Counted from the stretch's first letter, positions 33,848 through 64,000 are shown. The stretch is DNA of 64,000 bases from Candidatus Omnitrophota bacterium (GCA_003528115.1 DOGZ01000017.1:8795-72794), one strand, 5' to 3'. Program-made: numbers and translations. The notes: generated from the sequence alone by a model not told the origin.

Positions 33848-34705
33848 ATGAGCGGCCTTCTCCTTCAGTCTCCTGCCAAAGTCAATCTTTTCCTTAAGAT
33901 TCTTAATAAAAGAGCGGATGGGTACCACAATATCGTTACATTATTTGAACGCGTAGATCTCTGCGATGAGATATTTTTGGATTCTAACAAAATTGGCGAT
34001 ATTCGGATTTTCTGTAACCATCCCCATGTTCCTACCGGGCCTAAAAACCTTGCATACAAAGCCGTTAGAATGCTCCAAAAAGATTTCCGGATAACAGAAG
34101 GTGTTGATATCAGAATCAATAAACGAATCCCCGTGGCCGCGGGGTTAGCCGGGGGGTCAAGCAACGCGGCCACAACTCTATTGGGGTTAAACCGTTTATG
34201 GGGGCTACGTTTGGGATCGAAGAAGTTGTTGTTTTATGCCCGTCAAATTGGAAGCGATGTCCCATTCTTTTTATATAATTGTTCATGGGCTTTAGGTCAG
34301 GGAAGAGGGGATGTCATTAAAAAGATAAATATAAGGACAAAGTTATGGCATATTTTGGTTATTCCTCGAATTAAAATGTATTCTTGGAAAGTCTACGGCG
34401 GCTTGAAATTGAAGTTGACAAAAAAAGATGATGATGTTAATATCCTAATCCATCATTTAAGGAAAAATAATTTAGAAGAGGCTAGACGGCAATTAGTTAA
34501 TGATTTAGAGACTTCCATCATAGAGCTATGCCCGAGACTTGAGAAAATACGGGAAAAATTGAAGTTATTGAACGCCCAGAATGCTATGTTTTCTGGGAGT
34601 GGGCCGTGTGTGTTTGGGATGACTGATTCTGAAAAGGATGGCAAGACCATGGCCGTGATATTGAGGAAACGTTTTAATCAAGTATTTGTCGTTAGAACTC
34701 TTTGA
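33848..34705 (+). CDS. ispE: 4-diphosphocytidyl-2-C-methyl-D-erythritol kinase
   Basis: GHMP kinase motif PVAAGLAGGSSNAA and the N-terminal KVNLFLKI. Confidence 0.85.
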   Translation: MSGLLLQSPAKVNLFLKILNKRADGYHNIVTLFERVDLCDEIFLDSNKIGDIRIFCNHPHVPTGPKNLAYKAVRMLQKDFRITEGVDIRINKRIPVAAGLAGGSSNAATTLLGLNRLWGLRLGSKKLLFYARQIGSDVPFFLYNCSWALGQGRGDVIKKINIRTKLWHILVIPRIKMYSWKVYGGLKLKLTKKDDDVNILIHHLRKNNLEEARRQLVNDLETSIIELCPRLEKIREKLKLLNAQNAMFSGSGPCVFGMTDSEKDGKTMAVILRKRFNQVFVVRTL

Positions 34706-34901
34706 AATTCGTTTTAGAGGATGTGTGGCGGCAAGGGAAATGTTTTTTCCCTTATCGGAATAGGTATTGCGAAAGACTTAAACTCGTTACGAACTTCTTA
34801 AAAGAAATGTTTGGGGCAAGAGATTGACACTTCTAAAGGGATGATAGGCTGAGGAAGTGGCAGTTGAAAAGCGTACCGAAACAAAGGAAGGGGTTGAGGG
34901 G

Positions 34902-35306
34902 ATGGAGATTACAGAAATTCGCATATTTCCTAAAGAAGGACAAGACAAAAAGTTAAAAGCGTATACAACAGTGACATTTGATAATTCCTTTGTTGTTAGA
35001 AACATCAAAGTTATTCAAGGTTCGAGTGGGTTATTTATTGCTATGCCATCTCGAAAAATGAAGACTTCGTGTCCCAAGTGTCATTTTAAAAATGAGATCG
35101 GCAGCAGATTCTGTAATCACTGTGGAACTGCTATCCCATCAGATAATACCCAGACACATGAGGGGGATGATAAGGCAGAACATCGTGACATCGCGCACCC
35201 CATAACTCAGCAATTTCGCGAATATCTGCAAACAAATATCTTAGAGGCCTACAATAAAGAAACCGCTAAAACCATTTCTTCGAGTGGTTCTCCAGAACAA
35301 ACTTGA
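34902..35306 (+). CDS. spoVG: SpoVG family nucleic-acid-binding protein with inserted zinc-ribbon
   Basis: The core aligns to SpoVG (MEITEIRIF...FVVRNIKVIQGSSGLFIAMPS...HRDIAHPIT). About 37 aa containing CPKC-x12-CNHC are inserted in the loop. Confidence 0.75.
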   Translation: MEITEIRIFPKEGQDKKLKAYTTVTFDNSFVVRNIKVIQGSSGLFIAMPSRKMKTSCPKCHFKNEIGSRFCNHCGTAIPSDNTQTHEGDDKAEHRDIAHPITQQFREYLQTNILEAYNKETAKTISSSGSPEQT

Positions 35307-35427
35307 TCTAAAATTTTGTCGAAATTAGATAAAGAAGTCCGGATGTGGATTTCCAGAAAAGAGGCTATAGATAAAATGAATCAGGTGCCTCTTAAGATTT
35401 TTTTGTTGCTGAAATAGGATGTTCGAT

Positions 35428-35499
35428 TGCCCGGTGGTGTAATTGGTAACACACGAGAATTTGGATCTCGTTTTCCTGGTTCGAGCCCAGGCTGGGCAG
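35428..35499 (+). tRNA. tRNA-Gln (anticodon UUG)
   Basis: Manual fold: acceptor stem TGCCCGG/CTGGGCA with U1-A72 and G73; D-arm GTGT-AATTGGTA-ACAC; anticodon arm CGAGA-ATTTGGA-TCTCG; T-arm CCTGG-TTCGAGC-CCAGG. No CCA is encoded. Confidence 0.8.
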
Positions 35500-35606
35500 A
35501 TAAATTTGCCGGGTAAAACCCTCAGAATCTTTGTGAGAAGAACATAGATATATAAGGCTATCAATTTTGGTTCTGCTGTTAGGGATGTGACGAAGGGGTG
35601 CGTTTT

Positions 35607-36866
35607 ATGAAAGATTTACGAACGATTATTCTGGCGGCGGGTAAGGGGACAAGAATGAAATCAGCAGTCCCCAAAGTGTTGCAAACAGTTTGCGGACGTC
35701 CGATCATTCAGTATGTTCTGGATATTGCCAAAAATGTCGGTTCTTTGAAAACTTATATTGTTGTCGGTCATAAAAGTGATGACGTAAAAATTTATTTACC
35801 TAAAGAAGTGGTCACTGTTGAACAGAAGCGGTTGTTAGGGACGGCGGATGCTGTTAAGTGTGTGGAAGGGCATCTTAAAAATGACAAGGGGGATGTCCTG
35901 ATATTATGCGGAGATACGCCGCTACTTAATAAAAGAGTCATTGCTGAGCTTATTAGAAAACACCGGCGAACAAAAGCGATAGTCAGTTTCTTGACGGCAA
36001 TTGTCGATCAACCTAAAGGGTATGGCCGCATCTTGCGGGATCAGGCGGGGAGAGCGGTGGCCATTCTGGAAGAAAAAGATGCCAGTGTTCAGCAGCGAGC
36101 AATTAATGAAATTAATGTTGGTGTGTACTGCTTTAATAGCGCAGCGCTGTTTGGGGCGTTAAGAAGCATCAAGATTAATCCAAAGAAACAAGAGTTTTAT
36201 TTAACGGATATTATTGAACTGTTTTCTAAAAGAGGACGGCGGATTGAAACTCTCCGGACAGAAAATCCTGCCGAAGGATTAGGCGTTAATACCAGAGAAG
36301 ATTTGGCCGTTGCCGAGAGAATCTTGCGGCGAAAGATTTTAAAAAAGTTGATGCTTTCCGGGGTGACCATTATTGATCCCCAAACGACGTATATTGATGC
36401 CGATGTGAAAATCGGCAGAGATACGATTATTCGTCCGTGTACTTTTATCGAAAACGATATTCGCATTGGAAAGAACTGTAAGATTGGCCCTTTTGCGCGA
36501 CTAAGGCCAGGGGTGAGGATTGGAGACGAAGTAGAAATTGGGAATTTCACAGAAGTATCGCGCACGAAAATAGGCAAGCAGACTCTTATGAAACATTTTA
36601 GCTATTTAGGCGATTCTTTGGTCGGTTCCAAAGTCAACATAGGGGCAGGGACAATAACCGCTAATTTCGATGGGCAGAAAAAAAATCAAACGATCATCAA
36701 AGATCAAGCTTTTATCGGTTCTGATTCTATTTTAATAGCCCCTGTTAAGGTTGGCAAGAAGGCGATTGTTGGCGCTGGAAGTGTTGTGACAAAAGGAAAG
36801 ATTATTCCAGATGGCAGTATCGTCGTCGGGGTACCTGCTAGGGTCATTGCCAGGAGAAAATTTTAA
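35607..36866 (+). CDS. glmU: Bifunctional UDP-GlcNAc pyrophosphorylase / GlcN-1-P N-acetyltransferase
   Basis: LAAGKGTRM N-terminus and C-terminal LbH repeats. The ATG has an AAGGGG RBS. Confidence 0.85.
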   Translation: MKDLRTIILAAGKGTRMKSAVPKVLQTVCGRPIIQYVLDIAKNVGSLKTYIVVGHKSDDVKIYLPKEVVTVEQKRLLGTADAVKCVEGHLKNDKGDVLILCGDTPLLNKRVIAELIRKHRRTKAIVSFLTAIVDQPKGYGRILRDQAGRAVAILEEKDASVQQRAINEINVGVYCFNSAALFGALRSIKINPKKQEFYLTDIIELFSKRGRRIETLRTENPAEGLGVNTREDLAVAERILRRKILKKLMLSGVTIIDPQTTYIDADVKIGRDTIIRPCTFIENDIRIGKNCKIGPFARLRPGVRIGDEVEIGNFTEVSRTKIGKQTLMKHFSYLGDSLVGSKVNIGAGTITANFDGQKKNQTIIKDQAFIGSDSILIAPVKVGKKAIVGAGSVVTKGKIIPDGSIVVGVPARVIARRKF

Positions 36867-37816
36867 TGAATGGGATATCCGTCTTTACCGGGAACGCTAA
36901 CCCTCAATTAGCGGAAGATATTTGTAAACAATTGGACGTCTCTTTGACTAAAGTGCTTGTTTCTCGTTTTAGCGAGGGGGAGATCCGGGTTGAGATCAAA
37001 GAAAATATAAGAGGCAAAGATGTTTTTATCATACAGCCGACGTGTCCTCCCACAAACGAAAATTTGATGGAGCTGTTGATTTTGATTGACGCGGCCCGGC
37101 GAGCGTCGGCGCAGCGTATCACCGCGGTTCTCCCGTATTATGGGTATGCCCGTCAGGATCGTAAAGATCAGCCGCGTGTTCCGATTACTGCCAAATTGGT
37201 GGCTAATTTGATTGTCTCGGCAGGGGCGCAACGCGTCTTGACTATGGATTTGCATGCGAATCAAATTCAGGGCTTTTTTGACATACCGGTTGATCATTTA
37301 TACGCTATTAATACGTTGTGTGATTATTTGAGCAGCAAAAAGTTGAAGAATTTGGTGGTGGTCTCGCCTGACGTGGGTGGGATTAAAATGTCGAGAGCGT
37401 ACGCCAAGAGATTAGGCGCGGGATTGGCCATCGTGGATAAACGCCGGTGGAGTCCTGAGAAAACGGAAGTCATGCATATCCTAGGAACAGTAAAGGGAAA
37501 GAATGCGGTGCTGGTCGATGACATTGTGGCCACGGGAGGGTCGTTGATCGAGGCCATTGATGTCCTTACTCAAAAAGGTGTTAAGGATGTCTACGCGACG
37601 GTGAGCCATGGCATTCTTTCGGGAGAGGCGGTTTCCCGCATTAAAAATTGCAAGGCTCTAAAAGAATTAGTAATTACGGATAGCATTCCTTTAACCAAAG
37701 AAAAGCGGGTCTCTAACATCCGCGTTGTTAGTGTCGCACCTCTTTTGGCTGAGGCTATCCGTCGAATACATGGGGAACAGTCTATTAGTTGTTTATTTGA
37801 TGAAACGAGGGCTTAA
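36866..37816 (+). CDS. prs: Ribose-phosphate pyrophosphokinase
   Basis: PRPP synthetase motifs are present. The start overlaps the glmU stop. Confidence 0.9.
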   Translation: MNGISVFTGNANPQLAEDICKQLDVSLTKVLVSRFSEGEIRVEIKENIRGKDVFIIQPTCPPTNENLMELLILIDAARRASAQRITAVLPYYGYARQDRKDQPRVPITAKLVANLIVSAGAQRVLTMDLHANQIQGFFDIPVDHLYAINTLCDYLSSKKLKNLVVVSPDVGGIKMSRAYAKRLGAGLAIVDKRRWSPEKTEVMHILGTVKGKNAVLVDDIVATGGSLIEAIDVLTQKGVKDVYATVSHGILSGEAVSRIKNCKALKELVITDSIPLTKEKRVSNIRVVSVAPLLAEAIRRIHGEQSISCLFDETRA

Positions 37817-37818
37817 AA

Positions 37819-38517
37819 ATGGAAGAAATTAAACTGGATGTGCAATTAAGAAATCAGTTAGGAAGTCGGAAAATCAAGAGTATTCGTCGGGAGGGTTTTA
37901 TCCCTGCTATTGTTTATGGCGCGGATGGCGGACCAACACCCATTAAAGTGGAGCAACGCAATTATAAGAAAATCATGCGGCTTCATAAAGGGCAATTTGT
38001 TGTTTTTCATTTGAATGTGTTGGAGGGGAGCAGGAAATTAAAAGATTATTCCGTTATTCTCAAAGAGGAACAACTGGATCCGGTTTCTGAGGAATTGGTT
38101 CATATCGATTTTCACCAGATTTCTTTAACGGAGAAAATTGAGGTTAAAGTCCCCGTTGCTACAAAGGGGGATCCTATCGGCGTGAAACAAGGCGGCGGAA
38201 CCCTCGAGCACGGGTTGTGGGAATTGGATGTGGTTTGTTTACCGACAAATATCCCTGAAAAGATCGAAATCGATGTCAGTCATTTAAATATAGGACAGGT
38301 TATCCATGTCAAAGATGTCATTTTGCCGGAAGGGGTAAGCACGAGGCATGATCCGGAATCTCTGGTTGTCTCGGTCGTTTATTCCATGAAAGAAAAAGAG
38401 ACGGAAGAGGCGGTGACGGAGGCTCCGAACGAACCTGAGGTTATAAAGGCAAAGAAAGAAACCAAAGAAACCAAAGAAGTCAAAGAAGCGGTAGAGGCCA
38501 AACCAAAAGAAAAATAG
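37819..38517 (+). CDS. ctc: 50S ribosomal protein bL25 / general stress protein Ctc, with K/E-rich tail
   Basis: L25 N-domain followed by a Ctc-type C-domain and a lysine/glutamate-rich tail. Confidence 0.85.
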   Translation: MEEIKLDVQLRNQLGSRKIKSIRREGFIPAIVYGADGGPTPIKVEQRNYKKIMRLHKGQFVVFHLNVLEGSRKLKDYSVILKEEQLDPVSEELVHIDFHQISLTEKIEVKVPVATKGDPIGVKQGGGTLEHGLWELDVVCLPTNIPEKIEIDVSHLNIGQVIHVKDVILPEGVSTRHDPESLVVSVVYSMKEKETEEAVTEAPNEPEVIKAKKETKETKEVKEAVEAKPKEK

Positions 38518-38560: not shown

Positions 38561-39154
38561 ATGTCCTCAACGTATCTGATCGTAGGTCTGGGCAATCCCG
38601 GAAAAGAGTACGAATATACGCGGCATAATCTTGGTTTTTTGGTTTTACGCCGCTTGGCGGAAAAACTTAACCGTCGATTTAAAATCAGCTCTTTAACAAA
38701 TGGTTTGATGGCAGAAGGACAAATTCAAGAAAAAAACGTCTGTCTTTTGATGCCGATGACCTTTATGAATAATTCAGGGGTTGCCGTCAGCCAGGTCACG
38801 GCCAAGAAAAATGTATCCCCTAAAAACCTGCTTGTGGTGTGTGATGATTTGAATTTAAATTTTGGTCAAATCCGTTTAAGGTCTAAAGGAAGTGATGGCG
38901 GACATAACGGTCTGAATTCAGTTATTCATCACTTGGGGACAGAGGAGTTCTTGCGGTTGCGCATGGGGGTAGGACATCCGGGGCACAAGCTAGACGTTGT
39001 TGACTACGTCCTTGCTGAGTTTAAGCCAAAGGAAAAAGAATACCTAGAGAATTTTATCGGTGAGGCGACAGGGTGTTGTCTCACATGGGTAAGTGAAGGA
39101 ATAAAAAAAGGAATGGAGCAGTACAACAGAAGGAAAGAAAATGGAAAAGAGTGA
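38561..39154 (+). CDS. pth: Peptidyl-tRNA hydrolase
   Basis: LIVGLGNPG and HNG motifs. Confidence 0.85.
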   Translation: MSSTYLIVGLGNPGKEYEYTRHNLGFLVLRRLAEKLNRRFKISSLTNGLMAEGQIQEKNVCLLMPMTFMNNSGVAVSQVTAKKNVSPKNLLVVCDDLNLNFGQIRLRSKGSDGGHNGLNSVIHHLGTEEFLRLRMGVGHPGHKLDVVDYVLAEFKPKEKEYLENFIGEATGCCLTWVSEGIKKGMEQYNRRKENGKE

Positions 39155-39476
39155 ATTAGTCAGAAAGTATGAATTGGTTGTTATTGTCGACGCAAAATTG
39201 ACACAAGAAGAAAAAGAAACCATTTACAAAGAAGCCACAGATGCCGTAACTAAAGGAGGTGCTAAAATTATTAATAATCATGTGTGGCTCGAAAAGCATA
39301 AATTTACTTTCCGTATCAAGAAGTGTCATGAAGGAACTTATTATCTGATTGCTTTTGAAGGGGAGGGTTCTGAGATTGAAAAGATCAAATCCGTGTTAAG
39401 GGTAAACGAACGCGTTCTTCGTTTTGCCATCACGCAGGGTAAGTCCCCTTATGTCGTCGAAGCGGGACGTATCTAA
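39141..39476 (+). CDS. rpsF: 30S ribosomal protein bS6
   Basis: YELVVIV N-terminus, the right size, and the rpsF-ssb-rpsR context. Confidence 0.85.
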   Translation: MEKSELVRKYELVVIVDAKLTQEEKETIYKEATDAVTKGGAKIINNHVWLEKHKFTFRIKKCHEGTYYLIAFEGEGSEIEKIKSVLRVNERVLRFAITQGKSPYVVEAGRI

Positions 39477-39565
39477 ACAGAACAATATCAACCTTACCGA
39501 CTTTAATAGTCTTTAAGGGCGGTGGTCAATTTTAAAATGAGCGTTTGAGTTTGAAGGAGGTTAGA

Positions 39566-40006
39566 ATGGCGAATTTAAATAAAGTTTTTTTAATTGGTAA
39601 TTTAACCCGAGATCCAGAATTGCGTTACACTCCTGGAGGAACGGCAGTCGCCAATTTAGGCATAGCCGTTAACAGACGGTTTAAAGACAGTTCTGGCGAG
39701 TTAAAAGATGAAGTTTGTTTTCTTACGGTTACGGTCTGGGATAAACAGGCTGAGGCCTGCTGCCAATATTTACAGAAGGGTCGTCCTGTATTTGTGGAAG
39801 GTGTTTTACAGTCGAGATTTTGGGAGACCAGTGATGGCCAGAAGAGAAGCGCCATAGACGTGCGCGCGGAGAGAGTCCAGTTTTTAGGGAGTTACGGAGC
39901 CAGTAAAGAGAAAGATGCCGCAAAACCCGAAGAGGTGGAAATGGCTGACGTGATTAGCCAACAATCAGAAGCTATTAAACCAGATGATATTGCCTGGGAT
40001 GAATAA
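39566..40006 (+). CDS. ssb: Single-stranded DNA-binding protein
   Basis: OB-fold N-terminus (NKVFLIGNLTRDPELRYT) and an acidic C-terminus. RBS GAAGGAGG. Confidence 0.85.
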   Translation: MANLNKVFLIGNLTRDPELRYTPGGTAVANLGIAVNRRFKDSSGELKDEVCFLTVTVWDKQAEACCQYLQKGRPVFVEGVLQSRFWETSDGQKRSAIDVRAERVQFLGSYGASKEKDAAKPEEVEMADVISQQSEAIKPDDIAWDE

Positions 40007-40030: not shown

Positions 40031-40279
40031 TTGATAAAGAATGATAATAAAAGAAGAATAATAAACCGCCAAAGAAACACGGTTAAATTTCAATTGTCCA
40101 AAGACGCTCAAATTGATTATAAAAATCTTGGGTTATTGCAAAAATATGTCAATGAGCGTGGTAAGATTGTCCCTCGACGCATATCGGGTGTGACCGCCAG
40201 GGAGCAAAGAGCGTTGGTTTTGGCCATTAAAAGAGCCAGGTTTTTAGCCCTTTTGACAACAGGCGGGGTTAAAAAATAA
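40031..40279 (+). CDS. rpsR: 30S ribosomal protein bS18
   Basis: [11 protein letters not shown]...[12 protein letters not shown]. The start is TTG with an AAGGAGG RBS. Confidence 0.85.
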
Positions 40280-40461: not shown

Positions 40462-40905
40462 ATGGAAGTAATATTGTCGCAAGATGTTCAGAAACTAGGT
40501 AAAGTCGGGGAGGTCGTCAAGGTTAAAGATGGTTATGCCCGAAATCTCCTTTTCCCCCAAAAGTTAGCCTATTTAGCCACCCCTGTAAATCTTAAAAGAA
40601 TTGAACAACTCGAGAAAAAGAGAAAGATACAGTTTGAGAAGGATAAACAAGAAGCTTTGACCTTGGCGGAAAAGTTAAATAAACTTTCCTGCACGGTGAG
40701 TGTTGAGGTGAATGATTTAGAACGCCTTTACGGATCCATCAATGAAAATGATATTGTTAAAGCCATGGAAATGGAAGGTTTTAGCATAGATAAGAAAACC
40801 ATTATTATAGAGAAACCCATTGAAGAATTAGGTATTTTTGAGGTCGGTATCAAACTTCATCCTGAAGTGATAGCCAAAATACGTCTATGGGTTACGAAGA
40901 AATAA
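40462..40905 (+). CDS. rplI: 50S ribosomal protein bL9
   Basis: MEVIL...VKVKDGYARN N-terminus. Confidence 0.85.
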   Translation: MEVILSQDVQKLGKVGEVVKVKDGYARNLLFPQKLAYLATPVNLKRIEQLEKKRKIQFEKDKQEALTLAEKLNKLSCTVSVEVNDLERLYGSINENDIVKAMEMEGFSIDKKTIIIEKPIEELGIFEVGIKLHPEVIAKIRLWVTKK

Positions 40906-42218: not shown

Positions 42219-42267
42219 CATCTAAATTGATTGTCCGTATAATCAGTCAAATTTGAGGGGCCAAATC

Positions 42268-54124: not shown

Positions 54125-54189
54125 CGGCGCAGTAGGGAATAGGAAGGGTCAAGGATAAAGGAAAAGGTTGATTGAATAAAGGAAATACC

Positions 54190-54690
54190 ATGCTGTGTGA
54201 TATCTGTGGTAAAAAGAAGGCAACCGTTCATTTGACGGAAATCGTCGATGAGCAGATGTCTGAAATGCATTTGTGTGAAGAGTGCGCCCGAGAAAAAAGC
54301 GTGCAAATGGAACAGCAGTTCGGCCTGGCGGATTTACTCGCCGGGTTGTCGGATTTCGGCAAACAGGTTAAGAATGTGCCGAAAGTCAACATTAAATGCT
54401 CCAACTGCGGGTTGAATTATGATGATTTCCGGAAGTTCGGCCGGTTGGGATGCAGTCTGTGTTATGAGTCTTTTAAAGCGCATTTAGCGTCGCTGTTAAA
54501 GAAAATCCACGGTTCAGATCGTCATGTGGGCAAGACACCTGTGAAAATCCCCCACGCCGAGAGAATGAAAATGGATGACTTGCAAGAATTGAAGAACCAG
54601 TTGCAGCATGCCATCCAGGTGGAAGACTTTGAGTTGGCGGCGCGGTTACGCGACCAAATCCGTGAATTAGAAAAGAAAGAAGAGCAATAA
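54190..54690 (+). CDS. mcsA: Protein-arginine kinase activator McsA (zinc fingers plus UVR motif)
   Basis: Two CxxC pairs (CDICG...CEEC; CSNCG...CSLC) and a C-terminal UvrB/C motif. Confidence 0.75.
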   Translation: MLCDICGKKKATVHLTEIVDEQMSEMHLCEECAREKSVQMEQQFGLADLLAGLSDFGKQVKNVPKVNIKCSNCGLNYDDFRKFGRLGCSLCYESFKAHLASLLKKIHGSDRHVGKTPVKIPHAERMKMDDLQELKNQLQHAIQVEDFELAARLRDQIRELEKKEEQ

Positions 54691-55895: not shown

Positions 55896-58319
55896 ATGTT
55901 CAATAGATTCACGGAAAGAGCGAGAAAAGTGATTGTTTATGCCAAAGAGGAAGCCAGACGTTTTAATCACGATTACATTGGGACGGAGCATCTGCTCTTA
56001 GGATTGGTGCGTGAGGGCGAAGGGGTCGCGGCGGCCGTCCTTCAAAAGCTCGGGCTGGATTTAGAAATGATTAGAATAGAAGTCGAGAAACTGGTTCAAC
56101 CCGGTCCTCAGACGCAGGTGCTCGGCGATATTCCTTTTACCCCGCGTTCTAAGAAAGCCCTGGAACTTTCCGCCGAGGAAGCGCGCGCCTTGGGACATAA
56201 TTATATCGGCACTGAGCATCTTCTTTTGGGATTGGTGAAAGAAGGGGAAGGAATGGCTTATCGGGTTTTGCTGAATCTGGGTCTGGATTTGGGAAAACTC
56301 CGTAATGAGGTGATGGAACTGCTGGGTTCCGGGATTCCCGGTTTCGGGGCGCAAGAGCCGGCGGCGAGGACGGATAAAACTCCGGCGATTGATGCCTATG
56401 GCCGTAATCTCAATAAATTGGCCAAAGAAGGCAAGTTGGACCCTGTGATCGGCAGGGAAGCGGAGATTGAACGCATTCTGCAGATATTAAGCCGCAGGAC
56501 GAAGAACAATCCTGTTTTACTTGGAGAGGCGGGCGTCGGGAAAACAGCGATTGTCGAAGGACTGGCCCAGATGATCGTCAAAGGGGATGTCCCGGAAATC
56601 TTAAGGGATAAATCGATCATTGTCCTGGATTTGGCTTTAATGATTTCGGGGACAAAATACCGCGGGCAGTTTGAGGAACGCATCAAGGCCATCATGGATG
56701 AGATCAAACGGTCCGGTAAAATTATTTTATTTATAGACGAGCTTCATACCCTCGTGGGAGCGGGAGCGGCGGAAGGCGCCATTGACGCGGCTAATATTTT
56801 AAAACCCGCCCTGGCGCGCGGCGAGATCCAATGTGTCGGCGCCACCACGCTGGATGAATATCGCAAACATATCGAAAAAGACGCCGCCCTGGAAAGACGG
56901 TTTCAGACCATTATGGTGGAACCGCCTTCGCCGGAGCAGGCTATTCAAATTTTAAACGGCCTGCGAGATAAATATGAGGCCCATCATCGGGTCAAGTTTT
57001 CCGATGAGTCTTTGGAGGCCGCGGTGCGGCTTTCCGATCGGTATATTTCTGGACGGGCATTGCCGGATAAGGCGGTGGATGTCCTGGATGAGGCCGGCTC
57101 CCGCGTCAGGCTCAAAGCCATGGTCACCCCGCCGAATTTAAAGGAATTGGAAGATCAAATAGAAAATTTAAGAGAAGAGAAGGAAGATCACATCAAAAGT
57201 CAGGATTTTGAGAAGGCCGCTAAAATGCGGGACCTGGAAAGAGAGAAACGCAACGAATTGGAAAGCTTGAAACGCAAGTGGACGCAGGAAAGAGACAGCG
57301 CGACGTTGATTATAGGGTATGAGGACATTGCTAAAGTCGTTTCCCAGTGGACCAAAATACCCCTGGTGCGTTTAGGCCAGAAGGAGAGCGAACGACTTCT
57401 GAAGATGGAAGAGCACATGAGGAAGGTCGTCGTCGGACAAGAGGAGGCCAGCAGCGCTATCGCGCGGGCTGTCCGACGGTCAAGGGCCGGAATCAAGAAT
57501 CCGCGCCGGCCGATCGGGTCGTTCATTTTTCTGGGGCCGACCGGCGTTGGAAAAACGTTATTGGCCCAGGCCCTCGCTGAATTCATGTTCGGCGACAAGG
57601 ATTCGCTCATTCAAATTGATATGTCCGAGTATATGGATAAATTTAATGTCTCCCGTTTGATCGGAGCTCCGCCGGGATATGTCGGCTATGAAGAAGGCGG
57701 CCAGTTGACGGAAAAAGTTAGGCGCAGGCCTTATTCGGTGATCTTACTGGATGAAATTGAGAAAGCCCACGCGGATATTTTTAATCTGCTGTTACAAGTT
57801 TTTGAAGAAGGACGGCTGACGGATAGTTTGGGGCGGAAGGTGGATTTTAGAAATACGATTATTCTGATGACATCGAATGTCGGGGCGGACATGCTCCGGA
57901 AACAGGGTTCGTTGGGTTTTGCCTCTCCCAAAGAGGAAACGACCTATGAAGAAATGAAAGTCCGTCTTCTGGATGAAGTGAAAAAGACGTTTAAGCCGGA
58001 GTTTTTAAATCGTATTGACGATATTATCGTCTTTAAGTCTTTGACGCGCGAGAGCCTCTACGAGATCGTTAAGCTCGAGATCAAGGAGGTTTCCGACCGC
58101 ATGAAAGATAAGGGTATCAGTATTGAACTTTCTCAAGAGGCCTTTGCTTTGCTTATTGAGAAGGGTTTTGATCCTGTTTACGGGGCAAGACCCATCAAAA
58201 GAACGATTCAGCGTCTTCTGGAAGATCCGTTGGCTGAGAATATCATCTCCGGACAATTTAAAGACGGGAGCAAGGTCAGGGTTGAGCGAGAAGCGGAAAC
58301 GTTGATTTTTAAAGAATGA
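55896..58319 (+). CDS. clpC: ATP-dependent Clp protease ATP-binding subunit ClpC
   Basis: Clp_N repeats, two AAA+ modules, UVR linker, AGGAGG RBS. Confidence 0.9.
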
Positions 58320-59290
58320 GAGACAAATTATTTCTGGGTGTATGTATTTTCACTCTCATGTTTGCCACAACTTCTTATGCCGAGAAGTTTTTGGCTTTTC
58401 AAGGTCAGATCGATTTCTCCAAACATCAATCCGACTTTGTTTTTGATTTAAAGAAACACGGCTTTTTAAGAATCAACGTCGATAAGACCGCGGAGGCTTC
58501 CTATCGTCTTTTGTTAAAGATCGAGCACCTTAAGACGCCTTTCTTTGATTTGTCGAGTGAGATTGAAGGTTTGGTTGATGTGGTCGGATCTGATGAGCAA
58601 GCAGACGGATCGCTCTATGGAAAGATTAGTAGTCACTACACCCTTATCGACTATAAACCCATTCGTGAATTTTCCGGCCGAGTTGAGATCAAAAACAAAA
58701 CATTGTATTTGAACCCTTTGACATTTGGGAATACGGTTTGCCGGGCCGAGGTGAGTTTGTCCCCGCCGTATAAGCTGGACTTGGTTATGGATTTGGCTTC
58801 GATGGACATGGATGACTTTCTGAATTTCTGGGTAAGAAATAAAGCGTACAATGCCTCAGGCGCCGTCGCCGGCCGCATTAAGATCTCGGGAACGTTGGAT
58901 CGATTGATGCTCGCCGGGAATTTAGAGAGTCATAACGGTTTTATCAAGAATTTCCAGTATGACAGCATTTATTTGAACATAGAAGGGACTTATCCGAATA
59001 TGCAAATTACGGATTCTTCCGTTTCTGAAACGGATGGGCTGAGTTTTATGATCGAGGGGCCGATTGACTTAAGCGATCAGGAAAATTTTAAGAACCAGAT
59101 CAAGGCCTTAACGCTCTCTCCGCTTGTCCGCGAATCCGAATCTCAATCGGAGTGGACGATTAAACGTATTGAAGAGGAAAATTTTGGAACAACGGAAATC
59201 AAATATCTTAAACGAAAAAGTCAAAACCCGGGATCCCAAGATAAAGAAGAATCGGATATGTTAGGTATCCAGAGGACCCTGGAGTTTTGA
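58316..59290 (+). CDS. Secreted hypothetical protein inserted between clpC and radA
   Basis: Signal peptide [22 protein letters not shown]. No motif I recognise. Its ATG overlaps the clpC stop. Confidence 0.4.
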
Positions 59291-59316
59291 CGGCGGGTAT
59301 TGTTATTGGCCGGTGT

Positions 59317-60711
59317 ATGATGAAGACTAAAACACTTTTTGTTTGTCAAAATTGCGGGTTCCAATCTCCACGATGGTTGGGGCGATGCGCGGGTTGTGAC
59401 AGTTGGAATTCTTTTGTGGAGGAAAATATCATGTCTTCCACGGCGTCCAAACAGAATCGGCCGGCCATCCAGGAGGAACCGGTTTTGCTGACTAAGGTTG
59501 TCACAGACCGGGAGTCCCGTTGTACGACGGATATTCAAGAATTAGACCGTGTCCTGGGCGGGGGGATTGTTTCAGGATCCGTCATATTGATCGGCGGGGA
59601 TCCGGGGATTGGGAAATCGACGTTATCTTTGCAAATCGGTTGCGCTTTAAGCCGGAAAAGGCATAAAGTTCTTTACGTCAGCGGAGAGGAATCCGTCAAA
59701 CAGACCCGAATGAGGGCCGAGCGTTTGTTTAATAGTGAGACGTCCTTTAACGCCGCTCATTTGGATTCGCTCTATATCGTCAACCAAATTGATCTGACGG
59801 TGATCCTGGAATACATGAACAAAATGAAACCGGAGTTTGTCGTTATCGACTCGATCCAGGTTTTGTATAGTCAGGAGATTTCTTCCACCCCCGGAAGCGT
59901 GAGTCAGGTCCGAGAGTGTTCTGGAATTTTGACGCAAACGGCCAAGTCCATGGGGATTTCTCTGTTTATCATCGGGCATGTGACCAAAGACGGCACGCTG
60001 GCCGGTCCCCGTGTTCTGGAGCACATTGTGGACACGGTTTTATATTTTGAAGGCGAACGGTATTCCACGTACCGGATTTTACGGGCGACAAAAAATCGCT
60101 TTGGTTCGACCAACGAGATCGGCGTCTTTGAGATGACGCAGGCGGGGTTGCAAGAGGTTTTGAATCCCTCCGAAATATTTTTGTCTGAACGTCCGAAAAA
60201 CGCCGCGGGGTCCGTTGTGGTTCCCATCATGGAGGGGACAAGGCCTTTTTTGGTAGAGATTCAAGGACTTGTGAGCCGGTCGAGTTTTGGGATGGTCCGG
60301 CAAAAGGCCCAAGGGTTTGACGCCAACAGGCTGGCATTATTGATTGCCGTCCTGGAGAAGAGGCTGGGGTTGAATTTGCAGGACAAGGATGTTTTTCTGA
60401 ATGTGGTCGGCGGTGTGAAGGTGATGGACCCGGCGGCGGATCTGTCTGTTGTCATGGCGATTGCCTCGGGTTTGTTGGATAAACCGGTTAGTTTTGATAC
60501 CGTTGTGTTAGGAGAGGTAGGCCTTTCCTCGGAGGTGCGAAGTGTGAGCCAATTGGCCGCCCGCATCAATGAGGCGGATAAACTCGGTTTTAAGCGATGC
60601 GTGATGCCCAAGAATAATTTAAAGACAAGGTTGGAATTAAAAGGCAAGCAAATCGATCTTATTCCTGTTGAAACCGTGAAAGAAGCTTTAGACGCGTTGT
60701 GCCGAAATTGA
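59317..60711 (+). CDS. radA: DNA repair protein RadA (Sms)
   Basis: N-terminal C4 zinc finger (CQNCG...CAGC), RecA-like Walker A GDPGIGKST, Lon-like C-domain. Confidence 0.85.
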   Translation: MMKTKTLFVCQNCGFQSPRWLGRCAGCDSWNSFVEENIMSSTASKQNRPAIQEEPVLLTKVVTDRESRCTTDIQELDRVLGGGIVSGSVILIGGDPGIGKSTLSLQIGCALSRKRHKVLYVSGEESVKQTRMRAERLFNSETSFNAAHLDSLYIVNQIDLTVILEYMNKMKPEFVVIDSIQVLYSQEISSTPGSVSQVRECSGILTQTAKSMGISLFIIGHVTKDGTLAGPRVLEHIVDTVLYFEGERYSTYRILRATKNRFGSTNEIGVFEMTQAGLQEVLNPSEIFLSERPKNAAGSVVVPIMEGTRPFLVEIQGLVSRSSFGMVRQKAQGFDANRLALLIAVLEKRLGLNLQDKDVFLNVVGGVKVMDPAADLSVVMAIASGLLDKPVSFDTVVLGEVGLSSEVRSVSQLAARINEADKLGFKRCVMPKNNLKTRLELKGKQIDLIPVETVKEALDALCRN

Positions 60712-60804: not shown

Positions 60805-61785
60805 ATGACATTATTATTCATCCGATGTTTTTTTGTTATCATCAGCGTTTTTGTGGGGTATTACGTAGGGAGTATGAGTGGGCTTGTGCTTCCGGGCGCG
60901 GGGATAGGATTGATGAGCGGTCTTGTATTGATTTTTCTGGAAAGCCGGCTTCAGCGGGTCTCTGTGCGCGGGCTCTCGAGCATGGTCTTCGGTCTGCTGC
61001 TGGGTGTCTTTATGGCCAAGATGCTTTCGGATATTTTGTTTTTGCTCCCGTTGGGGGAATTTCTCCATTCGATTCTCAGGGTGGTCCTGACCATCGTGTT
61101 TTCTTATTTGGGCGCCGTGATGGCTGTACGGGGAAAAGATGAATTCAATATTATTATTCCGTATGTCCGCTTCAGACGGCAGGATATTAAGGAGGGCGTC
61201 GTCCTCTTGGACACCAGTGTCATTATCGACGGACGGATTAACGATATTTATAAAGTGAATTTTTTGCCGGGCCGTTTGGTCGTCCCCAGGTTTGTTTTAG
61301 AGGAATTGCAGAAAATGGCTGATGCGTCGGACGATCTCCGGCGTCAGCGCGGCCGGCGGGGATTGGAGTTGTTGCGGACCATGCAAAATGATCCCAAGAT
61401 GGACATTCACATTCATGAAGATGACCTGACGGACGAGCAGGAGGTCGACGCCAAATTGGTGAGACTGGCTAAATTGATGGATGCCCGGATTTGCACGATC
61501 GATTTTAATCTGGGACGGCGGGCCGCCTTACAGGGGATTGATATTTTGAATATTCATGAGCTTGTCAATGCCGTTAAGTCCGTGACATTTATGGGAGATA
61601 CCTTTGAGGTTAAACTCATCAAAGAAGGCAAAGAAGCTCATCAGGCCGTCGGATATATGGAAGACGGGACCATGATTGTGGTTACGGAGGCGCGGCATTG
61701 TATCGGGCAGCAGGTCAAGGTTAAGGTGACCTCTGTGCTGCAGACACAGGCTGGGAAAATGATTTTTGGTGAATTATTAAAGTGA
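60805..61785 (+). CDS. yacL: YacL-like membrane protein with PIN and TRAM domains
   Basis: N-terminal TM helices, a PIN core (VLLDTSVIIDGRI), and a C-terminal TRAM-like beta domain. It occupies the radA-yacL-ispD-ispF position. Confidence 0.75.
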   Translation: MTLLFIRCFFVIISVFVGYYVGSMSGLVLPGAGIGLMSGLVLIFLESRLQRVSVRGLSSMVFGLLLGVFMAKMLSDILFLLPLGEFLHSILRVVLTIVFSYLGAVMAVRGKDEFNIIIPYVRFRRQDIKEGVVLLDTSVIIDGRINDIYKVNFLPGRLVVPRFVLEELQKMADASDDLRRQRGRRGLELLRTMQNDPKMDIHIHEDDLTDEQEVDAKLVRLAKLMDARICTIDFNLGRRAALQGIDILNIHELVNAVKSVTFMGDTFEVKLIKEGKEAHQAVGYMEDGTMIVVTEARHCIGQQVKVKVTSVLQTQAGKMIFGELLK

Positions 61786-62486
61786 TGAAGCTGCCCGTTT
61801 TGAAAACACAGGCCATCATGCCTGCGGCGGGTTTGGGGACACGGTTACAGGCTGCTGTTCCAAAACCGTTCGTCCTCCTGGACGGGGAGCCTATTTTTAT
61901 TCATACCTTAAAGGTCTTGGCGGAGTGTCCTGGAATAGAGAGCATTGTGGTGGTTGCCCCGCCGGATCATTTAAGCCGGTTTGAGGAAACGATTCAGCGA
62001 TGCCATTTTCAGAAGACCGTCAAAGTTGTCGGTGGAGGGGCGACCCGGACAGAATCTGTTTTTAATGGTCTTGCGGCGGTGGATGCGGATACGGAAATGG
62101 TCGTTATTCATGATGGGGCCAGGCCTCTCATCAAATTGTCTGTGATTGAAGAGGCGGTCAAATTGTGCAGGGAGTCTGGGGCGGTGGTCGTGGCCGTGCC
62201 TGTGAAACCGACGATTAAAAAAGTTCATCCGGCTTCCTTGCTCGTTGAGGAAACGCTCAACAGAGAAGAACTGTGGGAGGCGCAAACACCGCAGGTTTTT
62301 AAGAAAGAAATTCTCATGAAGGCTTATGAAGAGCATGGAGAAGATCCGGCAACGGATGATGCCGGCCTGGTGGAACGCCTGGGGAGGGAAGTGAAGATTT
62401 TACGGGGGGATTATGATAACATTAAAATTACGACGCAAGAGGATCTGCTGATCGCCGAAGTCCTTTTGAAGGCCAGGCGCGGTTAA
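61785..62486 (+). CDS. ispD: 2-C-methyl-D-erythritol 4-phosphate cytidylyltransferase
   Basis: IMPAAGLGTRL motif. Confidence 0.85.
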   Translation: MKLPVLKTQAIMPAAGLGTRLQAAVPKPFVLLDGEPIFIHTLKVLAECPGIESIVVVAPPDHLSRFEETIQRCHFQKTVKVVGGGATRTESVFNGLAAVDADTEMVVIHDGARPLIKLSVIEEAVKLCRESGAVVVAVPVKPTIKKVHPASLLVEETLNREELWEAQTPQVFKKEILMKAYEEHGEDPATDDAGLVERLGREVKILRGDYDNIKITTQEDLLIAEVLLKARRG

Positions 62487-62543
62487 AAAGCGGGAGTTTG
62501 AATTTAACGGAATTTGAATCTTTTTAAAGGAATGGTGACGCAG

Positions 62544-63023
62544 ATGCGGCAGAGAATCGGTTTAGGGTATGATATTCATCGGTTGGTGGAGGGGCGTAAG
62601 CTCATTTTAGGGGGCGTTGAAATTCCTTACACCAAAGGCCTTCTTGGTCATTCCGACGCTGATGTGCTGCTTCACGCGGTCTGCGACGCGCTTTTGGGGG
62701 CCATAGGCAAGGGCGATATCGGAGAGCATTTTCCTGATACGGATGAAAAATATCGCGGGATCTCCAGCATGCTTTTACTTGAGAAAGTTTATAAACTGGT
62801 CGAACAAGAGGGATATGTGGTGTCCAATGTCGACGCCCTCATCCAGGCCGAGGAGCCTCAATTAAAGGACTATAAAGAGCAAATGAAATTTCATATCGCC
62901 TATAAATTGGCCATTGACGAGGACGCGGTTAACATTAAAGCCACCACGTTAGAGGGGCTCGGGGCCATCGGCCGTAAAGAGGGGATCGCCGCTTTCGCGA
63001 CGGTGTTGTTGGTTAAACAATAA
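62544..63023 (+). CDS. ispF: 2-C-methyl-D-erythritol 2,4-cyclodiphosphate synthase
   Basis: MRQRIGLGYDIHRL...GHSDADVLLHA. Confidence 0.85.
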   Translation: MRQRIGLGYDIHRLVEGRKLILGGVEIPYTKGLLGHSDADVLLHAVCDALLGAIGKGDIGEHFPDTDEKYRGISSMLLLEKVYKLVEQEGYVVSNVDALIQAEEPQLKDYKEQMKFHIAYKLAIDEDAVNIKATTLEGLGAIGRKEGIAAFATVLLVKQ

Positions 63024-63112
63024 GATTCAATGGGTAACGCGTAAACGTTCCAGGGGACGAATTCATTATGATACTCATTCTTTTTTTAACGTTTATTGGG
63101 CTTGTGGGATTA

Positions 63113-63745
63113 ATGGCCCTGATTTTCTCCGAGGAGATCAAAGCCACCAAAGAAAAAGATCCGGCGGCTAAAGGGCATGTCCAGATTATTTTTTTATACT
63201 CTGGTCTGCACGCGATCATGATCCATCGGCTGACGCATGGTTTATGGCAATGGAAGCTTTTATTCTTGGCCCGATGGTTGTCTCAGGTGGGACGTTTTCT
63301 CACAGGAATCGAGATTCATCCCGGGGCGCAGATCGGCCAGGGGCTTTTTATTGATCATGGGATGGGGGTCGTGATCGGCGAGACCGCGATTGTCGGTAAT
63401 AATGTCACGTTGTTTCAAGGAGTGACCCTGGGGGGGACCGGTAAAGAGACAGGCAAGCGTCATCCGACTTTGGGCGACAATGTCGTCGTAGGCGCCGGAG
63501 CCAAGGTGCTGGGGAATATTCATATCGGCGCGAATTCCTATATTGGGGCTAATGCGGTTGTCCTTAAGGATGTTCCGCCTAATTCAACCGTTGTCGGTGT
63601 GCCGGGGCATATTACCAAACAGGAAGGTAAGAAAATTGATTTAATGATGGATCACGCGCATGTCTCTGACCCCATGATGCAGCATATGAAAGATTTGATC
63701 CGAAGAATCAAGACCCTCGAAGACAAATTGAAGGAAAAAGAATAA
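63113..63745 (+). CDS. cysE: Serine O-acetyltransferase
   Basis: N-terminal [15 protein letters not shown] motif and an LbH C-terminus. The start is taken at the internal ATG because the ORF's upstream hydrophobic extension is atypical. Confidence 0.8.
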
Positions 63746-63819
63746 GGACATCCGACCTTGGTTTCTAGTGCGCCGTCAAATTAATTGTTAATAGCTACTT
63801 TCAGAAAAGACGCAGTGTT

Positions 63820-63860
63820 GTACTGTGTTCCACATATTAACTATTAAGTTGACACAGTAC
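63820..63860. repeat. Perfect 9-bp inverted repeat GTACTGTGT-n23-ACACAGTAC between cysE and cysS
   Basis: Read directly. Confidence 0.5.
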
Positions 63861-63918
63861 TAGAAGGATATGATTTCATTCGCGATATTAAATAGAAGAT
63901 TCTATCAAAGAATATTCC

Positions 63919-64000
63919 ATGGCTATCCGCATATATAATTCTCTGACTAAAAAGAAAGAGGACTTCGTGCCGTTGGAAGAAAAGGTCGTCAGGATGTATA
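63919..64000 (+). CDS. cysS: Cysteine--tRNA ligase, N-terminal fragment (continues beyond window)
   Basis: MAIRIYNSLTKKKEDFVPLEEKVVRMY resembles the CysRS N-terminus. It occupies the expected cysE-cysS position. Confidence 0.6.
   Translation, partial: MAIRIYNSLTKKKEDFVPLEEKVVRMY

Follow-up and report, generated by a model that had tools for sequence, protein, structure and literature searches.

Bacillus-like gene strings beside outer-membrane genes in an Omnitrophota chromosome: probable retention of an ancient gene order

Positions 33848 to 64000 of the DNA analysed here (the whole stretch of 64,000 nucleotides is called the window) combine gene strings in Bacillus-like order with genes for an outer membrane and for lipid A. 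The question is whether this marks a diderm relative of the Firmicutes, similar to the Negativicutes or Halanaerobiales, or a candidate phylum that has retained ancestral synteny. Both had been proposed in an initial annotation.

Source genome and gene content

The proteins OGW97675-97694 of Omnitrophica WOR_2 bacterium GWA2_45_18, including the ribosomal proteins L9 and L25, matched window proteins exactly, and the contig MHFX01000008.1 of this published MAG showed 0 mismatches over two stretches of 21.3 kb and 19.3 kb (window 17316-64000). Every named protein among the best 120 homologues of McsB, and likewise of SpoVG, was from Omnitrophica/Omnitrophota. The source of the MAG is a complex aquifer community. 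Published phylogenomics with several marker sets places the Omnitrophota in the PVC superphylum (PMC10066038). The window comes from the GWA2_45_18 MAG and represents ordinary housekeeping DNA of an Omnitrophota chromosome (candidate division OP3, PVC superphylum), coded on the leading strand, with all genes on the + strand from 31.6 kb onward. The proposed Firmicute-like lineage is contradicted by the exact match and by the position of the phylum.

Gene identities and order were determined with NCBIfam and Pfam profiles and the tRNA with ARAGORN (Table 1). All genes from 33848 to 64000 are on the + strand and separated by short gaps or 4-nt overlaps. The genes named in the initial annotation were all found in the order given there, whereas lysS, ilvE, the tRNA-Gln and a 324-aa reading frame had been overlooked. 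The reported absence of ctsR, disA, gltX, purR and yabJ from their Bacillus positions was borne out, as there is no room between the called genes. The slot upstream of ispE is also occupied in two other Omnitrophota contigs, in L091 by a TPR gene and in L092 by a gene with no Pfam match. At the cysS position, the full contig has a 470-aa tRNA-synt_1e gene.

SpoVG has been called "ubiquitous" in eubacteria (PMC3688583). The protein of the window likely starts at the ATG at 34902 and is interrupted by a zinc ribbon, about 37 aa long. A SpoVG from Pirellulales carries this insertion too, and in a Pirellulales genome the zinc-ribbon SpoVG is located beside ispE, as in the window.

The envelope proteins encoded in the window are BamA, Skp, LpxA/C/D/I, LolC/D, a SurA/PpiD-like chaperone and a predicted outer-membrane barrel. 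LolC, LolD and LpxI all scored below their NCBIfam equivalog cut-offs, and the Pfam matches to LpxI_N and LpxI_C were strong. The toolkit had been described as complete, which is an overstatement: the genes listed for it are present, but lpxB, lpxK, waaA, lpt, msbA, lolA, bamD and tolC were not found within the 64-kb window. The 324-aa protein between clpC and radA is probably an outer-membrane beta-barrel, and relatives carry mlaEFD at this place. The genes bamA-...-lpxI, lolCD and that for the predicted barrel are native to the Omnitrophota.

Table 1. Features from 32804 to the end of the window
Feature	Position	Strand	Evidence
TPR protein, directly upstream of ispE	32804..33835	+	Pfam TPR families
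ispE	33848..34705	+	TIGR00154 234 bits, cut-off 139
spoVG, zinc-ribbon variant	34857..35306	+	Pfam SpoVG 3.4e-30, residues 16-134; Zn_Ribbon_1
tRNA-Gln (UUG)	35427..35500	+	ARAGORN; Rfam tRNA
glmU	35598..36866	+	NF010934 477 bits
prs	36866..37816	+	NF002320 463 bits
rplY/ctc (L25)	37819..38517	+	TIGR00731 150 bits
pth	38561..39154	+	TIGR00447 194 bits
rpsF	39141..39476	+	TIGR00166
ssb	39545..40006	+	TIGR00621
rpsR	40031..40279	+	TIGR00165
rplI	40462..40905	+	TIGR00158; exact match OGW97688.1
dnaB replicative helicase	40887..42218	+	NF004384 610 bits
bamA	42253..44604	+	TIGR03303 566 bits
skp/ompH	44732..45253	+	Pfam OmpH 6.6e-23
lpxD	45409..46455	+	TIGR01853 354 bits
lpxC/fabZ fusion	46455..47807	+	NF009667 487 bits, cut-off 465
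lpxA	47854..48669	+	TIGR01852 334 bits
lpxI	48916..49758	+	Pfam LpxI_N 4.8e-31, LpxI_C 2.4e-48; NCBIfam below cut-off
lysS	49877..51343	+	NF001756 611 bits; 3' end overlaps lolC start
lolC/E-type permease, single copy	51340..52533	+	TIGR02212 337 bits, just below cut-off 362
lolD-type ATPase	52575..53264	+	TIGR02211 282 bits, below cut-off 308
ilvE	53261..54124	+	NF006185 447 bits
mcsA	54172..54690 (start ATG 54190)	+	NF053706 1.9e-44; Pfam UVR
mcsB protein arginine kinase	54734..55786	+	NF002194 451 bits, cut-off 385
clpC	55896..58319	+	full-length match to B. subtilis ClpC (3j3s), 1046 bits
324-aa ORF, secreted, beta-rich, lineage-specific	58316..59290	+	
radA/sms	59287..60711	+	TIGR00416 610 bits
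yacL-like PIN + TRAM	60805..61785	+	Pfam PIN_4 + TRAM, both near threshold
ispD	61782..62486	+	TIGR00453 231 bits
ispF	62514..63023	+	TIGR00151 213 bits
cysE	63068..63745	+	TIGR01172 248 bits
cysS 5' end, runs past window	63919..64000	+	translation MAIRIYNSL...

Gene order and McsAB-ClpC in diderm phyla

The order lysS-lolC-lolD-ilvE-mcsA-mcsB-clpC-...-radA-yacL-ispD-ispF-cysE-cysS recurred in 18 Omnitrophota-clade loci, with ilvE upstream of mcsA (17/17), clpC (15/15), yacL at the position of the window (10/10) and ispDF (10/10). The string from ispE through spoVG-glmU-prs-ctc-pth-rpsF-ssb-rpsR-rplI-dnaB-bamA-skp to lpxD was identical in two more Omnitrophota contigs. The order is conserved in about 20 Omnitrophota species, and the mcsA-to-cysS block occurs throughout the phylum. 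The suggestion of a candidate phylum retaining ancestral synteny was essentially right.

The block upstream of mcsA was also found in Verrucomicrobiota, where ilvE preceded mcsA in 21 of 23 loci and clpC was found in 16 of 17. Chthoniobacterales, Udaeobacter and Prosthecobacter have (lysS-lolC-)lolD-ilvE-mcsA-mcsB-clpC as in the window, and their McsB is 46-49 % identical to the window McsB. In contrast to the window, mlaE follows clpC and radA-yacL-ispDF-cysES do not (radA 0/12, yacL 2/12). In the window, ilvE occupies the place of ctsR, and the upstream context of the mcsA block is a PVC arrangement common to Verrucomicrobiota.

A genome scan, whose phylum counts are a sample from the best 80 loci of at least 600 rows and not a census, detected McsAB in the diderm Planctomycetota, Verrucomicrobiota, Eisenbacteria, Binatia, Latescibacterota/Handelsmanbacteria and Dependentiae. 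At some loci the submitter labels conflict with the clade assignment used here, such as "uncultured Planctomycetales" on Omnitrophota-like loci and "Bifidobacteriaceae" on one Verrucomicrobiota-like locus. Of the best 80 McsB loci a single one was from Bacillota, and the nearest relatives were Planctomycetota and Verrucomicrobiota. A crude neighbour-joining tree (216 McsB sequences, corrected p-distances, no support values, star-like deep branches) placed the Omnitrophota in a clade of their own, distinct from that of the Bacillota, which includes B. subtilis McsB. McsA-McsB-ClpC is probably native to the Omnitrophota and extends through the PVC superphylum. The combination with lipid A genes had been regarded as informative for the monoderm/diderm transition; this is not supported, as McsAB-ClpC is common in diderm phyla and has been described in Chlamydia (PMC10128030). 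The link between McsAB-ClpC and envelope genes across phyla is the one point that is mildly new.

In McsA, two zinc fingers of the CxxC...CxxC type are followed up by the sequence as present, together with UVR. McsB scored 322 bits to PDB 8wtb and has the catalytic and family-invariant residues, and ClpC has an LGF loop and the two GTEH repeats of its N-domain. From these features the biochemical function would be as in Bacillus: McsA-activated McsB would phosphorylate arginines on damaged proteins, and ClpC would bind the phospho-arginine with its N-domain and pass the substrate to ClpP. Unlike in Bacillus, the Omnitrophota system has no CtsR repressor. No CtsR operator was found in the window, and Rfam detected there no T-box or other element besides the tRNA. 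Because of the short gaps and overlapping stop and start codons, mcsA-mcsB-clpC is apparently co-transcribed with lysS-lolCD-ilvE.

Origin of the conserved order

The corresponding B. subtilis region, ctsR-mcsA-mcsB-clpC-radA-disA-yacL-ispD-ispF-gltX-cysE-cysS (the class III heat-shock clpC operon and the genes downstream), shares nine genes from mcsA to cysS with the window in order and orientation, which is far beyond chance. As for the rpsF-...-dnaB block, about 40 kb lie between rpsF-ssbA-rpsR and rplI-dnaC in B. subtilis, and the block therefore matches Bacillus no better than Pseudomonas or Mycobacterium. Gene orders were checked for E. coli and for two Bacillota-type MAG loci. A placement outside the Firmicutes had been expected to make the synteny coincidental. 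The placement is indeed outside, but the collinearity is too long for coincidence and is better explained by retention.

We conclude, with a probability of about 0.85, that the Bacillus-like blocks are old gene strings which bacteria have widely kept, here in a normal diderm candidate phylum, and that they are no Firmicutes signature. The strings are ispE-prs-(ctc)-pth, rpsF-ssb-rpsR-rplI(-dnaB) and radA-yacL-ispD-ispF-cysE-cysS preceded by mcsA-mcsB-clpC. The Omnitrophota have apparently kept them unusually intact and contiguous, with their own diderm envelope genes among them, and vertical retention from a deep ancestor is suggested. Since old and widely common strings adjoin native outer-membrane genes, the Bacillus-like order is not the mark of a diderm Firmicute.

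Horizontal transfer of a Firmicutes/Terrabacteria block (mcsA-mcsB-clpC, possibly with radA-yacL-ispDF-cysES) into an ancestor of the Omnitrophota or PVC is unlikely. Among the loci compared, the whole string from mcsA to cysS was confined to Omnitrophota and Firmicutes, while Verrucomicrobiota and Planctomycetota have parts; this and the star-like deep McsB branches would fit a transfer. However, Omnitrophota McsB is not nested in the Bacillota clade, the window ClpC is about equally identical to PVC (57-64 %) and Bacillota (59-60 %) loci, and ctsR and disA did not come along. The context is PVC-specific (lolD-ilvE upstream, mlaEFD or the barrel after clpC), and wholesale replacement of the single-copy essential housekeeping genes radA, ispD, ispF, cysE and cysS is improbable. 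Selection for co-expression on the leading strand, an "uber-operon" with partly convergent strings in Bacillus and Omnitrophota, would agree with the uniform strand, the positive GC skew throughout, the 4-nt overlaps at many junctions and the permutation of modules between phyla, where clpC is followed by bamA (Eisenbacteria/Binatia) or radA (Omnitrophota). We regard it as very improbable: the mcsA-to-cysS genes serve quite different processes (proteolysis, DNA repair, isoprenoid synthesis and cysteine metabolism) that share no known regulatory logic, and nine genes would have had to converge on the same order.

Close kinship, with the organism as a diderm member or sister of the Firmicutes, could account for the nine collinear genes, the string spoVG-glmU-prs-ctc-pth, which is that of Bacillus, and the ClpC score. 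It is scarcely compatible with the MAG match, the PVC placement, the nearest McsB relatives, the lolD-ilvE-mcsA context common to Verrucomicrobiota and the PVC-type zinc ribbon of SpoVG. Moreover, the window lacks ctsR, disA, a CtsR box and a T-box, whereas ctsR is present in both of the Bacillota-type loci, L041 and L081, and disA in L081. A chimeric bin or contig fusing Firmicutes and Gram-negative DNA, conceivable for a MAG from a mixed community, is hardly credible: at least five independent assemblies (JGI, ENA, NCBI) carry the same contiguous sequence with 0-1 mismatches, so misassembly does not explain the arrangement. The sequence is uniform in GC content (0.40-0.49) and in its positive GC skew, and its order is that of other Omnitrophota species.

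Comparison with known systems

The strings of the window resemble B. subtilis in the nine collinear genes, in McsA (two zinc fingers and UVR), in the kinase and C-terminal domains of McsB and in the N-domain repeats and ClpP loop of ClpC. They differ in that ctsR, disA, gltX, the CtsR operator and the T-box are missing from the window, ilvE and lolCD lie upstream, the predicted barrel separates clpC from radA, and the organism is a PVC-affiliated diderm. The diderm Firmicutes (Negativicutes, Halanaerobiales), which reportedly bear LPS outer membranes, combine Firmicutes-like housekeeping synteny with bamA/lpx genes, as the initial annotation pictured, but they belong to the Bacillota and not to PVC, and the window has no sporulation or ctsR/disA context.

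E. coli shares the cores of two "Bacillus" blocks, in lolB-ispE-prs-..-pth and rpsF-priB-rpsR-rplI. In the window ssb replaces priB, dnaB follows rplI, and spoVG, glmU and ctc are included. E. coli bamA-skp-lpxD-fabZ-lpxA-lpxB has the same cluster core, whereas in the window lpxC is fused to fabZ and lpxA is followed by lpxI instead of lpxB. With two cores in E. coli and a Verrucomicrobiota-like context upstream of the third block, the synteny does not serve as a Firmicutes-type marker.

Eisenbacteria and Binatia have the same modules adjacent on one strand, with mcsAB-clpC directly between lolCD and the bamA cluster: lysS-lolC-lolD-mcsA-mcsB-clpC-bamA-skp-lpxD-lpxC/fabZ-lpxA. Compared to the window the modules are circularly permuted, ilvE is missing and radA-...-cysS does not follow clpC. 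Chlamydia trachomatis, also a PVC diderm, has ClpC and McsA/McsB orthologues; arginine-phosphorylated casein was degraded in vitro by chlamydial ClpC-ClpP, and the authors suggest that mcsAB was perhaps acquired horizontally, which would favour a block transfer (PMC10128030). In Chlamydia, mcsAB is apart from clpC and flanked by tRNAs (PMC10128030), whereas in the window mcsA, mcsB and clpC follow one another directly, between lolCD-ilvE and radA.

Source organism and gene content of the window

The McsB and RmuC-like proteins of the window gave exact matches on the NCBI contig MHFX01000008.1 (GCA_001804395.1), and independent assemblies from JGI and ENA likewise contained both, in an identical gene order. 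Comparison of the window with MHFX01000008.1 showed 0 mismatches over stretches of 21.3 kb and 19.3 kb. The matching sequence belongs to "Omnitrophica WOR_2 bacterium GWA2_45_18" (proteins OGW97675-97694, ribosomal L9 and L25 among them). Among the top 120 McsB homologues, and likewise among the top 120 for SpoVG, all named ones came from Omnitrophica/Omnitrophota. Because of the exact Omnitrophica match and the published placement of the Omnitrophota (OP3) in the PVC superphylum by phylogenomics (PMC10066038), the organism is neither a Firmicute nor a sister of the Firmicutes. The initial annotation had proposed a diderm Firmicute-like lineage of the Negativicutes/Halanaerobiales kind, which was wrong; a candidate phylum retaining ancestral synteny, also proposed there, was the better half of that interpretation. 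Sequence identity, closest homologues and shared gene order all placed the window in Omnitrophota/PVC. It is a region of a published, machine-annotated MAG, and none of the systems in it is of a new kind. A chimeric MAG was ruled out by the independent assemblies, by 0-1 mismatches and by uniform GC content and skew.

The GC content was uniform at 0.40-0.49 and the GC skew positive in each 4-kb bin, which fits a housekeeping region on the leading strand. In the ORF listing, every gene beyond 31.6 kb lies on the plus strand, in an unbroken run that reaches the window end. The genes named initially were all confirmed by NCBIfam and Pfam scans, in the order stated: ispE, spoVG, glmU, prs, ctc/L25 and pth (block 1); rpsF, ssb, rpsR, rplI and dnaB (block 2); the envelope genes bamA, skp/OmpH, lpxD, lpxC/fabZ, lpxA, lpxI, lolC/E and lolD; and mcsA, mcsB, clpC, radA, a PIN/TRAM yacL-like gene, ispD, ispF, cysE and the start of cysS (block 3). 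The lpxC/fabZ gene is a true fusion (NF009667, 487 bits, exceeding the cut-off), and LpxI has the Pfam domains LpxI_N and LpxI_C. Unmentioned so far were a tRNA-Gln between spoVG and glmU, lysS between lpxI and lolC, ilvE between lolD and mcsA, and a 324-aa ORF that overlaps clpC with its start codon and radA with its stop codon. In an Rfam scan at gathering thresholds of positions 1-64000, tRNA-Gln was the sole match; the scan showed neither a ribosomal-protein leader nor a T-box ahead of lysS or cysE/cysS. The absence of ctsR, disA, gltX, purR and yabJ was confirmed, and the intergenic gaps are too small to contain them.

The diderm toolkit had been called complete. BamA, Skp, LpxA, LpxC, LpxD and LpxI are present, but completeness is unproven rather than false: lpxB, lpxK, waaA, msbA, the lpt genes, lolA, bamD and tolC were not among the annotated or Pfam-listed ORFs of the 64-kb window, a scan that covered all but a few small upstream ORFs. 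The late lipid A/LPS-export genes may lie elsewhere in the genome. For lipoprotein export, a single LolC/E-type permease and LolD were the best NCBIfam matches of two genes, with scores just under the equivalog cut-offs, and the window contains no lolA or lolB.

Further upstream, genes resembling those for surface-sugar modification lie on either side of a divergent junction. A 699-aa protein without a Pfam match is flanked there by two PMT_2 (ArnT-like) membrane glycosyltransferases, and across the junction follow a GFO/IDH/MocA oxidoreductase, a hexapeptide acyltransferase and a GT2 glycosyltransferase. A periplasmic chaperone gene of the SurA/PpiD type is the sole minus-strand gene near the housekeeping region, and its position and orientation are kept in the Omnitrophota contigs L091 and L092.

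Coordinates of features in the window and in loci of other genomes (L-numbers)
Feature	Source	Position	Strand	Remark
Surface-sugar-modification-like genes	window	291-6938	-	one side of divergent junction
Surface-sugar-modification-like genes	window	7118-9494	+	other side of divergent junction
Region with exact stretches to MHFX01000008.1	window	17316-64000
SurA/PpiD-like chaperone gene	window	29724-31280	-	SurA_N and rotamase domains
spoVG	window	34857-35306		zinc-ribbon insertion of ~37 aa (CPKC...CNHC)
324-aa ORF	window	58316-59290	+	predicted outer-membrane barrel
cysS	window	from 63919		first 27 codons
spoVG	L040, Pirellulales (Planctomycetota)	16905-17276	-	adjoins ispE
mlaE-mlaF-mlaD after clpC	L055	13659-15954		also in L012-L017, L019, L020, L022-L025, L028 and several Verrucomicrobiota loci

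Blocks 1 and 2 and the SpoVG protein

Two of the three "Bacillus" blocks have pan-bacterial cores, because E. coli K-12 has them as well, in the clusters lolB-ispE-prs-[two genes]-pth-ychF and rpsF-priB-rpsR-rplI; it also has bamA-skp-lpxD-fabZ-lpxA-lpxB. Pseudomonas and Mycobacterium match blocks 1 and 2 no less closely than Bacillus, in which rpsF-ssbA-rpsR is apart from rplI-dnaC. Literature searches returned no paper on the ispE/spoVG/prs/pth order of Bacillus. Within the Omnitrophota, the order of 17 genes from ispE to lpxD was exactly identical in L091 and L092. Both contigs have the divergent SurA-like gene, hisG and one further gene, which in L091 encodes a TPR protein, just upstream of ispE.

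SpoVG has been described as "ubiquitous" in eubacteria, and spoVG alone is not sporulation-specific (PMC3688583). The SpoVG of the window has a zinc-ribbon insertion in the loop that joins 'AMPSRK' to 'RDIAHPI'. This insertion aligned without gaps to the Pirellulales SpoVG, whose gene adjoins ispE as it does in the window. Each of the best 120 SpoVG homologues was 121-151 aa long. Bacillus SpoVG is not known to have such an insertion. A SpoVG with this zinc ribbon, encoded beside ispE, is a PVC trait and not a Bacillus trait.

The mcsA-mcsB-clpC neighbourhood across phyla

The third block was compared with other phyla by scanning GTDB, one genome per species, with a 60-sequence McsB alignment as query. 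The best 80 loci were kept with 10-kb flanks, and the window proteins were mapped onto them by tblastn.

Gene order around mcsB in the best 80 loci (counts are found/testable)
Lineage (loci)	Arrangement	Counts
Omnitrophota (18)	lysS-lolC-lolD-ilvE-mcsA-mcsB-clpC-[insert]-radA-yacL-ispD-ispF-cysE-cysS	ilvE 17/17, clpC 15/15, radA 9/12, yacL 10/10, ispDF 10/10
Verrucomicrobiota (24)	(lysS-lolC-)lolD-ilvE-mcsA-mcsB-clpC, without the radA-...-cysS tail	ilvE 21/23, clpC 16/17
Planctomycetota (32)	mcsA-mcsB mostly alone; mcsA-mcsB-clpC-radA in the anammox Kuenenia and Jettenia	mcsA 29/31, clpC 4/28, radA 2/17
Eisenbacteria, Binatia, two unclassified (4)	lysS-lolC-lolD-mcsA-mcsB-clpC-bamA-skp-lpxD-lpxC/fabZ-lpxA, one strand, tightly packed	clpC 4/4
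Bacillota-type, L041 and L081 (2)	ctsR-mcsA-mcsB-clpC; L081 continues radA-disA-..-carD-ispDF	clpC 2/2

The Firmicutes-type order stood in part: nine genes are indeed collinear with Bacillus, much more than chance would give, but the lolD-ilvE context upstream is a shared PVC arrangement. Both Bacillota-type loci have ctsR and L081 has disA, whereas the window has neither. The CtsR operator (RGTCAAANANRGTCAAA, up to 2 mismatches) had 0 matches in the window, which does not contain the Firmicutes-type clpC operon of ctsR, CtsR operator and radA-disA.

Eisenbacteria and Binatia are non-PVC diderm phyla. In L059, L067 (Eisenbacteria), L082 and L089 (Binatia), mcsAB-clpC is sandwiched between lipoprotein-export genes and the BAM/lipid A cluster. 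The taxonomic label conflicted with the sequence in some loci: seven MAGs named 'uncultured Planctomycetales/Planctomycetia' (L012-L015, L018, L020 and L055) had 53-79 % McsB identity to the window, fell into the Omnitrophota McsB clade and showed the full Omnitrophota gene order; L078, labelled 'Bifidobacteriaceae', grouped with Verrucomicrobiota. These conflicting labels probably reflect wrong taxonomy or bin contamination.

In most relatives, the slot after clpC is taken by mlaE-mlaF-mlaD for phospholipid transport, which lie directly 3' of clpC in most Omnitrophota and several Verrucomicrobiota. Neither mlaE nor mlaD was found in the window, where the slot holds the 324-aa ORF. Its product has a signal peptide, no family match and only 54 homologues, with the C-terminal Phe invariant in 41 of 41 aligned. 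In L020 and L022, clpC is followed by the barrel gene and then by mlaEFD. The genome of the window has lost or moved mlaEFD from the clpC-radA slot.

Across 1.84 billion cluster representatives, a full HMMER search (E <= 1e-30) gave 1,878 McsB-like clusters; labelled relatives included Planctomycetota, Dependentiae, Bacillota, Latescibacterota/Handelsmanbacteria, Verrucomicrobiota, Eisenbacteria and Binatia. Chlamydia trachomatis, a PVC diderm, also encodes ClpC and McsAB (PMC10128030). The combination of McsAB/ClpC with lipid A genes had been taken as a clue to the monoderm/diderm transition, which was not borne out, since McsAB-ClpC occurs in many diderm phyla. In two very long members of the McsB-like set, P0194 (2589 aa) and P0230 (1060 aa), a McsB-like kinase stretch (31-34 % identity) occurs three times; both are multi-domain phosphagen-kinase-like proteins.

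In a neighbour-joining tree of 216 McsB sequences, calculated from a numpy distance matrix, the Omnitrophota, Planctomycetota, Verrucomicrobiota and Bacillota formed separate clades, with B. subtilis McsB inside the Bacillota clade. The deep branches are star-like, and the tree was used solely to establish that the McsB of Omnitrophota does not fall within the Bacillota clade; a very old transfer is nevertheless conceivable. Read jointly, lysS-lolCD, mcsAB-clpC, mlaEFD or an outer-membrane barrel, and bamA-skp-lpxD-lpxC/fabZ-lpxA could be an ancient neighbourhood kept across diderm phyla; it was seen in two unclassified lineages as well as Omnitrophota, Verrucomicrobiota, Eisenbacteria and Binatia. 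The mcsA-to-cysS string that Bacillota also have could in addition go back to the common ancestor of Terrabacteria and Gracilicutes. We regard this reading as tentative, with a probability of roughly 0.25. If it is true, ancestral bacteria would already have had phospho-arginine/ClpC proteolysis, which would then not be a 'Gram-positive' system, and a functional tie to diderm envelope biogenesis would be possible, e.g. in the quality control of lipoprotein or OMP precursors.

Literature searches returned no paper linking McsB with Omnitrophota or treating its distribution in Gram-negatives, and no discussion of why McsAB-ClpC is found beside Lol, Mla, Bam and Lpx genes. Only this recurrent siting and the wide spread of McsAB-ClpC over diderm phyla are mildly new. 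The initial reading would have implied a new diderm relative of the Firmicutes that is informative on the transition between one and two membranes, which the window does not. As taxonomic markers, the 'Firmicutes hallmark' genes mcsA, mcsB, clpC and spoVG and strings of Bacillus type serve poorly, and the long housekeeping strings of the Omnitrophota may aid the reconstruction of ancestral bacterial gene order.

The McsA-McsB-ClpC system compared with Bacillus

McsB scored 451 bits with NF002194, above the cut-off, and 322 bits to PDB 8wtb. It has the Pfam domains ATP-gua_Ptrans and McsB_C, its NEEDH and CPTN motifs are invariant, and the family-invariant residues are kept. The McsA match to NF053706 (1.9e-44) was under the equivalog cut-off of 210; the gene adjoins mcsB, and the protein has two CxxC...CxxC zinc fingers and a UVR motif. 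The alignment of ClpC with its B. subtilis counterpart covers the full length (1046 bits). Both "GTEH" repeats of the N-domain are kept and an LGF loop lies at the place of the ClpP-docking loop; from the B. subtilis work, we take these to be phospho-arginine sites and the ClpP-binding element, respectively. The ctsR gene with its operator, ywlE and clpP were not found in the 64-kb window. Judged by sequence, the core McsA-McsB-ClpC system is present and the Firmicutes regulatory circuit absent from the window, and mcsAB-clpC is probably co-transcribed with lysS-lolCD-ilvE.

By analogy with Bacillus, the system would tag proteins with phospho-arginine, and ClpCP would degrade them. The system of the window differs from that of Bacillus in standing without CtsR, and McsAB-ClpC, Gram-positive according to the literature, is widespread in diderm phyla beside Lol, Mla, Bam and Lpx genes.
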